From: a virus
Lineage: Duplodnaviria; Heunggongvirae; Uroviricota; Caudoviricetes
IMG/VR virus record: IMGVR_UViG_2684622618_000013
Strand: one strand, 5' to 3'
Length of the DNA stretch: 6,464 nt
Made by a program: the position numbers and the translations under genes. Positions 566 through 6,219 of this stretch are shown piece after piece. Under the pieces are notes generated by a model. The model was not told where the DNA came from and did no database searches. It saw nothing but the letters and a program-made list of their open reading frames with translations. The stretch's first letter is position 1. Every line of letters starts with the position of its first letter.

Positions 566-1785
566 CGACGGGACAGCGCCTCCAGACTGTAGTTCTGCTG
601 CTGAAGATACAGTGCATCACCGCCGGCCAGGGGCGGCAGGTTCTCCCGTTTACGGGCCTCATTGGGCGTGAGAAGCGTATTTTTCACCGCATCCCCCAGC
701 GTTTTCATGCGCCGCTCACTGTCCATTCTCAGCAGCGTGGTGACATCAAATTCTGTACTCTCGTTTTCCCCCGTTTCCAGCGCCTCATCCAGTAACAGTT
801 CAATGGACTCAATCAGCGTCTGCAGGCACTGGGAATAATACTGCTGCTCCAGCGCCTCCACGTTGTCACTGGAAGGCGGTTGTCCCACGCCAATCTTGTA
901 GGCCGGGACACGGAACACCGAACAGACAATTTCAGCGGTCATCTTCAGTTGTTCCACCGTCTGCGCATCCACCGGTGAAAACGTCGTGGGGTTGTATTTT
1001 GCCCCGTTGCTCAGAATGGCCGTTTTCCCCGCATTTTCGCCTGTATACCCGCTGTCCCAGTTGCTCTTCAGTTTTTTCGCATTTTCTTCCGTAATACTGC
1101 CGGGGATCTCAATCACCCCGGACGGCCTGCCGCCATTTCTGAAAAAAGACGTCGAATTTTCCTGAATATGATGCCCCTGCGTGGCCGCCAGCCCGGCGGC
1201 ATACACCGGCGGCAATCCTATAAGCGGATGAAAAAAACAGTTAAACCGGTCGTGGATCACTTCCCGGGCAGGCACCGTCACCGCCTCCGTGATCCCGCAG
1301 TTCCGGTCCGGCGTGATGCGGTAGAACACCTCGCCGTCATCCGCCACCAGAGGTTCAACCCGGCTCCAGTCCAGAATACGCAGTTCTTTGATCTGCCCCC
1401 GGGCATTACGGATTTTCAGCACCACCGTATTGCCATGACGCAGTTTGGCGTTCAGCCACAGTTCAAAAAACTGGATGCGGTTCTGCTGGGCGTTGGGACG
1501 ACGACAGAGGCGGGCAATATCCCCCCGGCGCGTTTCCCTGCGTATCCCATGCGCATCCGTCTGCATAAGACGCAGCCGCATTTTGGCGATATCCTGGGAT
1601 ATCAGCGAAATACATGCAAACACCGCATGAAAGGAGAGGACGGCTTCAGGATCGGCTTTCACGCCCTGCTGCCAGGCGCCGGAAAAGGGCTCAGCCACCG
1701 CCTGAAACAGGCTGGTCCAGCCCGCCTCTCTTACGTCACGTCCTGATTTCTGGTTTTTTCGGGTTCGCCGTAAAAGGTTCCACAT
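566..1785 (-). CDS. Portal protein, HK97 family (3' end truncated by N gap)
   Basis: ATG at 1785..1783 with GGAG 8 nt upstream. N-terminus MWNLLRRTRKNQ...AVLSFHAVFACISLISQDIA matches the HK97-type portal pattern (M-x-L-F-R-R...sAVfACv.liS), and the C-terminal region LTPNEARKRENLPPLAGGDALYLQQQ is portal-like. About 406 codons are present before the gap. The 412..565 part of the track ORF is not trusted because the gap length is arbitrary. Confidence 0.9.
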
Positions 1786-1952
1786 TCGCCATGCTCCGCA
1801 TCACGTTTCTTTTTCTGACCTGCCGGACGTCGCACCGTGATGTACTCCGCCTTTCCCAGGCGAACCAGCACCTCCGCACACGGCTGTGCCACATCACGGA
1901 TATCCCCGGCCCGGGCATCATGCGTGCCCTGCAGATATCGGATCTTTGCCAT
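1731..1952 (-). CDS. Hypothetical small protein (73 aa), doubtful
   Basis: ATG at 1952..1950 in the capsid-portal spacer. Codon third positions are moderately GC-biased, but there is no well-spaced SD (only AGG 2 nt upstream) and the ORF overlaps the portal start by 55 nt in another frame. No recognisable family. Confidence 0.2.
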   Translation of the reverse strand: MAKIRYLQGTHDARAGDIRDVAQPCAEVLVRLGKAEYITVRRPAGQKKKRDAEHGECGTFYGEPEKTRNQDVT

Positions 1953-1960
1953 AACCTGTT

Positions 1961-1982
1961 ACGGGAGGCGCACGCCTCCCGT
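1961..1982. promoter_or_regulatory. Perfect 22-bp GC-rich palindrome / RNA hairpin immediately downstream of the capsid gene stop
   Basis: acgggaggcg-ca-cgcctcccgt: 10-bp arms that are exact reverse complements. On the minus-strand transcript it follows the stop (1999..1997) and an AAGGAGG motif (plus 1983..1989), with no U-tract after it, so it is not a canonical intrinsic terminator. Confidence 0.45.
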
Positions 1983-1996
1983 CCTCCTTATCAGAC

Positions 1997-3934: not shown

Positions 3935-3945
3935 ATCAGCCTCCT

Positions 3946-3972
3946 GAAAATAAAAAAACCGCCGCAGCGGTT
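3946..3972 (-). terminator. Putative rho-independent terminator between terL and the capsid gene
   Basis: Minus-strand RNA reads AACCGC-UGCG-GCGGUU (6-bp stem, 4-nt loop; plus 3957..3972) followed by UUUUUUUAUUUU, then the capsid-gene SD. The stem is short, so a partial terminator at most. Confidence 0.45.
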
Positions 3973-3997
3973 CATGATGGTTACAGTGTGAACAGGG

Positions 3998-5659
3998 TTA
4001 TATGAAAAAAACCGCATATTCTTTCTTTTTCGGTTCCGGGTTAAGGGACATCAGGGAGACCGCATTGAACAGCGCCATCAGCGGGTCAATTTTTCCCCGT
4101 CCACTGGCCTGTTTGGTGATAAGAATGGCGTTACCTTTAGGCTCCACCCGGGCATTGCCGACACACCAGGCCATCAGGGGCTGGTCACCATGCACCAGCA
4201 CCCCTTCAGCCAGTTTGCGCTCGGTGGTTTTAATGGCCCCGCCCAGTTTCCAGCCCTGGCTTATCCCCACCACAATTCCGTCGGGGATCCCGGCTTCCGC
4301 CAGTGAATCCAGAATCTGCCCCACCCCTGACGGGTCAATACCGATATGGTCCAGTAACTCAGCCTCATGAATGCGACGCACATATTCCGCCACTTCCGCC
4401 GTGTCATCCCCGACACGCCGGACAATGGTCATATCTCCACAGGCAACAAGATCCTGAAACCGGGACGCCTCGCTCTTCCGTCGGACCACCGCGGTTTCAT
4501 GCGCCCAGGCATGGCCCCAGCCCAGCCATTCGCGGGTTTCCCTGTCACGGCCAATCACGTACATTCCCAGCAGATCATCCAGGCCCCCGCCGTCAATCCC
4601 CACCGTCACCACATCAGCGCGCTGCAGGATATCGTCCAGGCTGACGCGCCTGCCCTGCTGCTCCCAGAAATCCGCACCCGCCCAGCGGTCAGAACGCAGG
4701 GCAAGACCAATTTCCACATTGGCATGTTTTGACATGAAGCCACGAAATGCTTCCTCACCAGCCTCCCGGGCTTTACGGTACTCCCGGTACAGAAAAGCCT
4801 CATCCACCGAATAACCGAGATTCGGGTTAACCATGGCGAGGTTTTCCATCAGCAGGTGAGCCCCGCTTTCCACCATTTCAGGAGGATGCTCAAAAATCAC
4901 CGGCAGAAAGTGCGGATCATGAATTTTGCCGTCACGGACATCCCGGGCGTACTGCAGTTTCTGTCTGAACACCCCGGCTGGCGGCTCATTCGACTGGGTG
5001 GTCGTATACACCACAAACCCTTCCGGGCGGGAGGCAAGGCCGCCTATGGCTTCACGTAACATGTCCTCCGCTTTGTACTGCTTGCCAAATAACCACAGTT
5101 CATCAATCAGCGTCCCCACGGACTTGATACCGGATACCGTATTCGGATCGGCAGCCACCACCTTCAGGGTGGTGTCCGTCACCCTGTGGGTGATGGTCCG
5201 GATATGTGTCTGCACCTGACAGAGGTCATCCAGATCATCGTCCCGTCGTACCATATCCCTGGCAGGGTTGAAGGCGTTAGCCGCCACCTCCACGGTCGGG
5301 GCCAGAATGGTGTAGCCCGCCGCCTGCCGCCAGTTCAGTAACAGCGCCGTCATCATGATCCCGGCAGCCAGCGTGGACTTGCTGTTTTTCTTGGGGATAA
5401 GGATAAAAACTTCCTTGATATGGCGTACACCGGTCTGCGCATCGTAGGAGCCAAACAGGGCCGCCACCAGGTCAAACACCCACTGTGCGCAGGACTCCCC
5501 GAACGTCGGGCTGCCCGGTGCATCCACAATCCGCAGTTGTTTAAAAATCGCCAGGGCATGTGCGGCCTGCTCCGGATAAATCGGAGCCGGAATAATCGAC
5601 AGCCCCTTTTTCAGGCGCTCTGCCCAGTCCGGGCAGGCCGTGCTCCACACAGGTATCAT
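3998..5659 (-). CDS. terL: Terminase large subunit (Terminase_1-like, HK97/P27 type)
   Basis: ATG at 5659..5657 overlapping the terS stop (ATGA); GAGGG 6 nt upstream; TAA stop at 4000..3998. 553 aa with a probable P-loop region (ILIPKKNSKSTL), an acidic Walker-B-like LIDELW, and a C-terminal nuclease-like region (VGIDGGGLDD, IGIDPSG). Position directly after terS fits. Confidence 0.93.
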   Translation of the reverse strand: MIPVWSTACPDWAERLKKGLSIIPAPIYPEQAAHALAIFKQLRIVDAPGSPTFGESCAQWVFDLVAALFGSYDAQTGVRHIKEVFILIPKKNSKSTLAAGIMMTALLLNWRQAAGYTILAPTVEVAANAFNPARDMVRRDDDLDDLCQVQTHIRTITHRVTDTTLKVVAADPNTVSGIKSVGTLIDELWLFGKQYKAEDMLREAIGGLASRPEGFVVYTTTQSNEPPAGVFRQKLQYARDVRDGKIHDPHFLPVIFEHPPEMVESGAHLLMENLAMVNPNLGYSVDEAFLYREYRKAREAGEEAFRGFMSKHANVEIGLALRSDRWAGADFWEQQGRRVSLDDILQRADVVTVGIDGGGLDDLLGMYVIGRDRETREWLGWGHAWAHETAVVRRKSEASRFQDLVACGDMTIVRRVGDDTAEVAEYVRRIHEAELLDHIGIDPSGVGQILDSLAEAGIPDGIVVGISQGWKLGGAIKTTERKLAEGVLVHGDQPLMAWCVGNARVEPKGNAILITKQASGRGKIDPLMALFNAVSLMSLNPEPKKKEYAVFFI

Positions 5660-6219
5660 CCGTTGCCCTCATTATCATTATTCACCACCAGGCGGGGTGG
5701 TGGTGGCACCGCAAAACGGTTAGCCGCTTTTTTCGCCGCGTCACCTTTTGCCGATTTTTTACCGGCATCCCCTTTTTTGTGGTGCGTGAACTGCGCCAGC
5801 TTATAAGCCGCATCCAGCGCCAGCCTGGGGTCGGTATTAATGTTCTCCACCAGAAGACGCCCCATCGCTTTCACCGGATCGGGAAGACCGTCCTCCATAT
5901 ACTCAATACCAGGAGATATCACCACGGGCGGTGGCATCTCCGGATTTGTTTCGTCCGGCTGTGGTATTGCAGCCGCCTCACGGCGACGGGGTTTATCCTC
6001 CGGCTCTGATTTTTTCTGCCGATAAACAGGAACCTCATCCACCTCCACCGTCTCGCACTGTTTACGGGCTATAAACGCAAGCACCTCCGGATCTTTTGCC
6101 AGCTGCGAGCCTTTAACCCTGGCTGTCTTCGCCGAATAACCGGCGGCAAGGGCTGACGCTGTTTTGTTTTTCCCGGACATGAGCGCCAGCGCAAATTTTC
6201 GTTTTTGCGTTGTCAGCAC
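5656..6219 (-). CDS. terS: Terminase small subunit (P27 family / Terminase_2-like)
   Basis: GTG start at 6219..6217 preceded by GGGAGGAGG (2-nt spacer to GTG; alternatively GGAGG with 5 nt). N-terminus MLTTQKRKFALALMSGKNKTASALAAGYSAKTARVKGSQLAKDPEVLAFI matches the conserved P27-family pattern (K.F...Y...N.T.AA..AGYS.KTA...G..LL..P.V...I). 187 aa with a charged, Pro-rich C-terminus. Stop overlaps the terL start. Confidence 0.85.
   Translation of the reverse strand: MLTTQKRKFALALMSGKNKTASALAAGYSAKTARVKGSQLAKDPEVLAFIARKQCETVEVDEVPVYRQKKSEPEDKPRRREAAAIPQPDETNPEMPPPVVISPGIEYMEDGLPDPVKAMGRLLVENINTDPRLALDAAYKLAQFTHHKKGDAGKKSAKGDAAKKAANRFAVPPPPRLVVNNDNEGNG

Follow-up and report, generated by a model that had tools for sequence, protein, structure and literature searches.

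What is to be made of a set of phage head genes in which the capsid gene precedes the portal gene? The set in question lies on a 6,464-nucleotide stretch of DNA from a virus of the Caudoviricetes (IMG/VR record IMGVR_UViG_2684622618_000013), hereafter the window, meaning the whole stretch that was analysed. All coordinates are window positions, and the long open reading frames (ORFs) are all on the minus strand, where they follow the order small terminase subunit (terS), large terminase subunit (terL), a fusion of prohead protease and major capsid protein (MCP), a 73-residue ORF and portal. The canonical order, that of HK97, is terL, portal, protease, MCP, and it is not the one found here. A preliminary description, made from the sequence without database searches, proposed that such a rearranged module might belong either to an atypical prophage lineage or to a capsid-encoding phage satellite. 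Our analysis leaves us highly confident that the window is the portion of a late operon devoted to head and packaging, from a long-tailed lambdoid Escherichia coli prophage or phage of the phage 2851/Pankowvirus type.

Positions 566-6464 are 100% identical, over 5899 bp, to Enterobacteria phage 2851 (NC_049943/FM180578; Pankowvirus pv2851, Stx2c), and equally to Stx2a_WGPS6 and to the Sp6 prophage of O157:H7 strain Sakai (NC_002695). Phage 2851 and Sp6 have identical genes in the same order, the small ORF included, and no difference from 2851 is detectable in the window. Matches at 90% identity or more occur in 94 phage records; BP-4795, phage 1717 and YYZ-2008 are approximately 98% identical to the window at the DNA level, and the fusion protein of phage phi330 is 99.8% identical to that of the window. 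The gene identities and order given in the preliminary description are supported by Pfam, NCBIfam and PHROG domain matches, with two refinements: a conserved small ORF intervenes between the capsid and portal genes, and positions 1-515 belong to a downstream repeat-protein gene, here called X, rather than to the portal proper.

An assembly or scaffolding artefact, in which a misjoin placed the capsid gene between terL and portal, might be suspected from the two 50-N runs in the window and from the repetition of this region several times per O157 genome, but we consider it extremely improbable. The N runs lie only at 213-262 and 516-565, where they stand in for 204 and 165 bp of phage 2851; both are downstream (3′) of the portal domain, and every junction from terS to the 5′ end of portal is therefore contiguous sequence, as the preliminary description had stated. 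Its further claim that the order is no scaffolding artefact also holds, since 566-6464 is identical to many finished genomes and to independently sequenced phage genomes. The 1786..1996 junction, which had been singled out as the place where a misassembly might lie, matches the finished genomes base for base, and 29 loci from other genera show the same order. The positions of the N runs and the identity to finished genomes together rule out misassembly.

The genomic surroundings of the module were inspected in four E. coli contexts whose DNA is 94-100% identical to the window (phage 2851, Sp6, AVS0578 and KE41). All four contain genes for a tape measure, a tail tip/J-type protein, holin, endolysin, the Q antiterminator and replication; a repressor/cro region is present in 2851, Sp6 and AVS0578 and an integrase in Sp6, neither being reached by the KE41 stretch. 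Upstream of the module in phage 2851 lie an HNH endonuclease, spanin, endolysin, holin, stx2c, Q, replication genes and cI/cro, whilst downstream it is followed by an Ad1 connector, head closure, gp10-like, tail terminator and major tail proteins and then by more tail genes, with chaperones, tape measure, minor tail proteins, a J-like fibre and Lom further on. Sp6 has the layout of phage 2851, with an excisionase in addition to its integrase, and the same tail, lysis, Q and replication layout is found in the non-O157 strains AVS0578 (river water) and KE41 (urinary isolate). The host elements measure 55-62 kb and have lambdoid O/P-like replication genes as well as cI/cro. Two points weigh against the assignment to a complete tailed phage: the window comes without flanks, so that the tail and lysis genes of its own copy are unseen, and the tail-fibre region of Sp6 is degraded. 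Among characterised relatives, the siphovirus phi330 forms plaques, has a head of 55 nm and a flexible tail of 145 nm and uses OmpC (PMC12502783), and a Pankowvirus Stx2c phage is inducible and lysogenises MG1655 (PMC12029490). An elongated head was reported for the latter induced phage (PMC12029490), a discrepancy with the 55-nm icosahedral head reported for phi330 (PMC12502783), which is of the same genus and has a 99.8% identical capsid gene.

These contexts bear directly on whether the module could belong to a capsid-forming satellite, that is, an island resembling the cf-PICIs (phage-inducible chromosomal islands that form capsids), which would encode its own HK97-type head genes and steal tails from a helper phage. 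The head set (terS, terL, protease, capsid, portal) is indeed compact and self-contained, the reference genomes also have HNH, adaptor and connector genes, and EcCIEDL933, the prototype among cf-PICIs, originates from an O157:H7 strain (PMC10085698) and shares with the present module an HK97-type capsid, protease, portal, terS, terL, HNH, adaptor and connector. The definition of cf-PICIs nevertheless forbids tails and holins; they are elements of 10-18 kb with an integrase and regulation and replication modules, without lysis genes or a complete tail module (PMC10085698; bioRxiv 10.1101/2025.02.11.637232), and the heads of EcCIEDL933 are T=4 and 47.5 nm (bioRxiv 10.1101/2025.02.11.637232). By comparison, the identical or near-identical contexts are without exception lambdoid prophages or phages of 50-60 kb with tail, lysis, Q and replication genes, phi330 has a larger head and a tail of its own, and no integrase, alpA-type regulator or primase-replicase genes adjoin the packaging genes. 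Because the inspected contexts all carry full tail and lysis modules, a cf-PICI is ruled out for the reference contexts, and for the window itself we regard the satellite alternative as having almost no probability.

It might alternatively be supposed that the order reflects a recent local rearrangement, or an atypical and rare prophage lineage confined to a few strains. The order is unlike that of HK97 and lambda, and the GC content of the module (55-63%) exceeds the E. coli genome average, as such a lineage might lead one to expect. The module is, however, present in 1286 of 5426 complete E. coli genomes (24%), at 3194 places, with a median of two and a maximum of seven copies per genome carrying it, and the junction-spanning stretch 1300-4300 is intact in 1243 E. 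coli genomes; it is common to Stx and non-Stx prophages. The order also recurs in isolated phages described since about 2008, PAJU2 for example, and it is kept at protein identities of 32-50% across three proteobacterial classes. We therefore judge a rare or recently rearranged lineage to be very unlikely. Of the 'atypical prophage lineage' suggested at the outset, the prophage part stands and the atypical part does not, given the frequency of the module in E. coli. The high GC content fits circulation among the Enterobacterales and beyond. In the literature that was searched, the fusion and the gene order of Stx phages are mentioned only indirectly.

Conservation of the order was surveyed by a scan with the fusion protein, keeping one genome per species, which gave 29 loci onto which the proteins of phage 2851 were mapped. 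The loci span gamma-, beta- and alphaproteobacteria and more than 20 genera, and the order of the lineage is HNH, terS, terL, protease/MCP, small ORF, portal, X, Ad1, head closure, gp10-like, tail terminator and major tail. It is kept in Enterobacter, Kluyvera, Buttiauxella, Citrobacter, Atlantibacter, Phytobacter, Kosakonia, Pantoea, Rouxiella and Erwinia, in Hydrocarboniphaga, Marinobacter and Snodgrassella, and, among the Alphaproteobacteria, in Chelativorans, Hyphomicrobiales and Caulobacteraceae; in Mesorhizobium it can be followed only up to terL and the fusion gene, at which the contig ends. Pseudomonas phage PAJU2 (Detrevirus) has gp01 terS, gp02 terL, gp03 fusion, small ORF(s), gp06 portal, gp07 X, gp08 Ad1 connector and gp09 head closure, its gp03 being annotated by the depositors as 'prohead protease fused capsid protein' and flagged as a structural protein. 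Burkholderia phage vB_FUB47a keeps the order, but differs in having protease and MCP as separate genes and in lacking X; identities for the proteins of these two phages are 39-48% (FUB47a against the window protein, PAJU2 against its Chelativorans homologue). Related genes are also found in Salmonella FSL SP-016, Stenotrophomonas SOVA965 and Moraxella and Ralstonia phages. Judged from this comparison of loci, the capsid-before-portal order is an inherited lineage trait of a widespread HK97-type module and not a local rearrangement. The flanks and synteny of the reference contexts thus show full tail and lysis genes and an order that is common in an established phage family, the outcome which the preliminary description had named as counting against its satellite proposal.

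Apart from the order, the module is of HK97 type: it contains an HK97-family portal, an S78 prohead protease and an HK97-fold MCP, and, as in HK97, no separate scaffold gene is apparent. As in HK97, whose head module comprises gp1-gp5 and the HNH protein gp74, an HNH gene lies by the terminase genes (in the reference genomes here), and gp6-, gp7- and gp10-like genes follow downstream. The departures from HK97 are that the portal (with X) follows the MCP, that a single ORF encodes protease and MCP, and that there are an extra small ORF and X. Gene order is not a functional requirement of the HK97-type family. The features of the window are collected in Table 1.

Table 1. Features of the window, with their positions, strands and the matches or observations on which they were assigned.
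Feature	Position	Strand	Matches and remarks
Protease-MCP fusion, single ORF of 645 aa	1997..3934	minus	Pfam Peptidase_S78 and Phage_capsid; TIGR01543, TIGR01554; phrog_617 (E=3e-261)
Internal in-frame ATG (Met193) with AAGGA	ATG 3358..3356; AAGGA 3373..3369	minus	Candidate delta-MCP start nested in the fusion ORF
Portal, HK97 family, aa 1-406 visible	566..1785	minus	Pfam Phage_portal (E=1e-81); TIGR01537 portal_HK97 (E=3e-105)
Gene X, fragments	1-212 and 263-515	minus	100% identical to phage 2851 (locus L001) 19167-19378 and 19583-19835
terS, small terminase subunit, 187 aa	5656..6219	minus	Pfam Terminase_2 (E=4.5e-8); phrog_641 (E=2e-68)
terL, large terminase subunit, 553 aa	3998..5659	minus	Pfam TerL_ATPase and TerL_nuclease; phrog_9, phrog_7622
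Terminator-like GC-rich hairpin with T run	3956..3973	minus	Terminator scan; between the terL stop and the capsid-gene ribosome-binding site
Five GTTAAC-centred sites	6296..6415		Intergenic; upstream of terS, downstream of the HNH gene (reference genomes)
Small ORF, 73 aa	1731..1952	minus	phrog_829, function unknown (E=4e-39); ECs_5418 / WP_001063099

Within the fusion ORF, whose product many Stx phages annotate as 'major head protein/prohead protease', the Peptidase_S78 domain covers residues 48-152 (window 3479-3793; 34.7 bits, cut-off 21) and the Phage_capsid domain residues 386-635 (window 2030-2779). The match to TIGR01554 (78 bits, above the cut-off) begins at residue 204, whilst that to TIGR01543, at 46 bits, is below the cut-off of 59. 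Between the domains, a stretch rich in charged residues (approximately residues 193-350, predicted by eye as coiled coil) falls under both the protease and the MCP PHROG profiles, and the ORF list of the window contains no separate scaffold ORF in the interval from terL to portal. At the beginning of this stretch the Met193 codon is preceded, 8-12 nucleotides upstream, by AAGGA. An aligned ATG, GTG or TTG with a Shine-Dalgarno (SD)-like motif is present at this position in 23 of 24 fused homologues, compared with a background for start plus SD of 0.75% per in-frame site, and the residues that encode the motif vary among the homologues (KG, KE, EG and others). In Snodgrassella and in Burkholderia phage FUB47a, where the MCP is a separate gene, its start lies exactly at the Met193-equivalent site.

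The conserved Met193 start suggests nested products. Because start and SD motif are kept in 23 of 24 homologues, the TIGR01554 match begins at residue 204, and the separate MCP of Snodgrassella and FUB47a starts at the same site, the gene most likely gives two products, an abundant delta-MCP from the internal start and a minor full-length protease-delta-MCP which would carry the protease into the prohead. Against this it must be said that the binomial P value for the internal start is inflated, since the loci are related; that we found no data for use of the Met193 start, for the ratio of the two products or for cleavage sites; and that PAJU2 gp03 is labelled in its record simply as a structural protein.

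By analogy with characterised members of these families, the head genes would be transcribed within the Q-antiterminated late operon, and DNA would be cut and packaged by HNH, TerS and TerL. The HK97-family portal would nucleate a prohead of HK97-fold MCP, with the N-terminal delta region acting as scaffold. Most capsid subunits would arise from the internal start at Met193, in a logic like that of lambda C/Nu3 but nested with the capsid protein, and the S78 protease would enter the prohead as the N-terminal part of the full-length protease-delta-MCP polypeptide, then cut away both itself and the delta region. Internal-start use, stoichiometry and cleavage in this scheme are all inferred.

Lambda has the scaffold Nu3 as its nested product, encodes its MCP (E) in a gene of its own and places its lambda-family portal (B) before C. 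The likeness to C/Nu3 consists in an internal in-frame start within a protease ORF, from which an assembly or scaffold part would be made, here deduced from the conserved ATG and SD motif; the difference is that Nu3 does not include the MCP, and we claim no sequence relationship to lambda. An architectural parallel is found among actinobacteriophages, in which a single gene combines protease, scaffold-like region and HK97-like capsid in clusters EE, AN, AX, CW, EL and others, cluster EE and similar small-genome phages having genomes of the 17-kb class (PMC7302621). The fusion ORF of the window scores 54 bits against the NCBIfam model for prohead protease/MCP fusions, NF045541, for which the cut-off is 525, so that the architecture is shared with these fusions but the sequence family is different.

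Downstream of the capsid gene, the portal scores 352 bits against TIGR01537, above the cut-off, and its relatives in the PDB are the HK97-family portals 8cez/8fql and 6tba. In the window the portal ORF runs into the N run at 516-565, under which the portal-X junction lies. The X fragments beyond it include 162-bp (54-residue) tandem repeats and are only 84-92% identical to Sp6. In phage 2851 the annotated 'portal' ORF has 859 residues, comprising a portal domain (approximately residues 1-454), a coiled coil, 54-residue repeats and a β-rich C-terminal domain; the repeats are encoded by a tandem array of period 162 bp (54 residues) in 3.3 copies (L001 19101-19694), and the X genes at loci L010 and L016 are longer. 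In nearly all other genera the portal ORF ends at approximately 450 residues and a separate X, with a size of approximately 290-560 residues in the Enterobacterales and shorter elsewhere, then begins with an ATGA overlap. X is a separate gene in BP-4795, in strain KE41, in PAJU2 (gp07; BLASTP E=8e-28) and in more than 20 genera. From these sequence comparisons, the '859-residue portal' of 2851 and Sp6 is a portal fused in frame to gene X; the stretches compared are window 1-565 (minus strand), L001 18641-19858 and L036 971-2356. What distinguishes the fused allele is a single additional G (G5 to G6) approximately 20 nucleotides upstream of the X start codon; this allele retains both the X ATG and a G-rich SD-like motif. 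Both forms occur in E. coli, portal and X being two genes in BP-4795 and KE41 and fused in 2851 and Sp6; a parallel is provided by actinophage portals that are fused to a downstream minor-capsid (MuF-like) gene (PMC7302621).

Draft assemblies break at this point because of the repeat array and G run that follow the portal, and these also account for the 'partial' and 'frameshifted' portals in the databases, where hundreds of 'partial' portal proteins come from short contigs terminating in the repeat region. PGAP marks the unfused portal as 'frameshifted', and 'portal protein' is a widespread annotation for X, one given in BP-4795 to both ORF58 and ORF59. The clusters of separate X proteins, P0025, P0026 and P0027, have 432, 150 and 162 member sequences, respectively; the matches listed for the X clusters are mostly 'partial' portal proteins on short contigs, and the precomputed Pfam listing for X-cluster proteins is PF28083.

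X itself, a conserved gene whose place is always behind the portal, consists of 27/54-residue repeats, a coiled coil and a C-terminal domain with a CBM5/12-like motif, the matches to CBM_5_12 being sub-threshold in each case (E=3e-5 to 0.02, in six proteins of different taxa). We found no real PDB relative, no NCBIfam match and no characterised relative of X, and an AlphaFold2 model made without a deep alignment had a predicted local distance difference test score (pLDDT) of 41 and no usable fold. Its gene position and the fact that fusion is tolerated make an association of X with the portal probable. The combined proposal that Met193 is a nested delta-MCP start and that X is a portal-associated minor head or neck protein, switched between separate and fused forms by the G run, is tentative, and we would sooner expect it to fail in some part than to hold as a whole.

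At the upstream end of the module, terS, which is annotated as such in phage 2851 and Sp6, has a GTG start preceded by GGAGG, and the terL ATG overlaps the terS stop by four nucleotides. The hairpin and T run that follow terL are kept in 19 of the 20 related loci that were folded, with changes in both stem and loop; attenuation, mRNA processing and mRNA stabilisation are candidate roles. Upstream of terS, GTTAAC is over-represented, with six sites in the window compared with 0.66 expected, five of them at 6296-6415 in a direct and inverted repeat arrangement. This cluster is a candidate for terminase recognition or cos-region sites. It is strong in E. coli, whereas other Enterobacterales have only one or two copies, and it is consequently not a conserved array.

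In the window, the small ORF that follows the capsid gene and the start of the portal gene share 55 nucleotides, and homologues of this ORF are found at the same position in 20 loci, with a length of 51-67 residues elsewhere compared with 73 here. Its N-terminal 38 or so residues are conserved (MAKIRYLQxTHDxxxGD...LGKAEY) and its tail is basic. It is annotated in Sakai and by PGAP but absent from the RefSeq annotation of phage 2851. Searches gave no Pfam, NCBIfam or PDB profile match for the ORF and no detectable relationship to PAJU2 gp05, and its AlphaFold2 single-sequence model (pLDDT 43) had no usable fold; a gpW-like nature of the protein is conjectural. The homologue in Snodgrassella alvi (L028 10090-10455) has an expanded low-complexity (GAD/AD)n tract, which the sister strain L027 is without.

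The module is thus already known: it is a very common and well-sampled head module, and neither a satellite nor a new lineage. The capsid-before-portal order is unfit as a hallmark of satellites or of novelty. The nested start, the portal-X fusion via the G run and the conserved hairpin are leads of modest interest that fall short of discoveries; should the nested starts and the link between portal and X prove true, they would add modest detail on how HK97-type heads take in their protease and accessory proteins.

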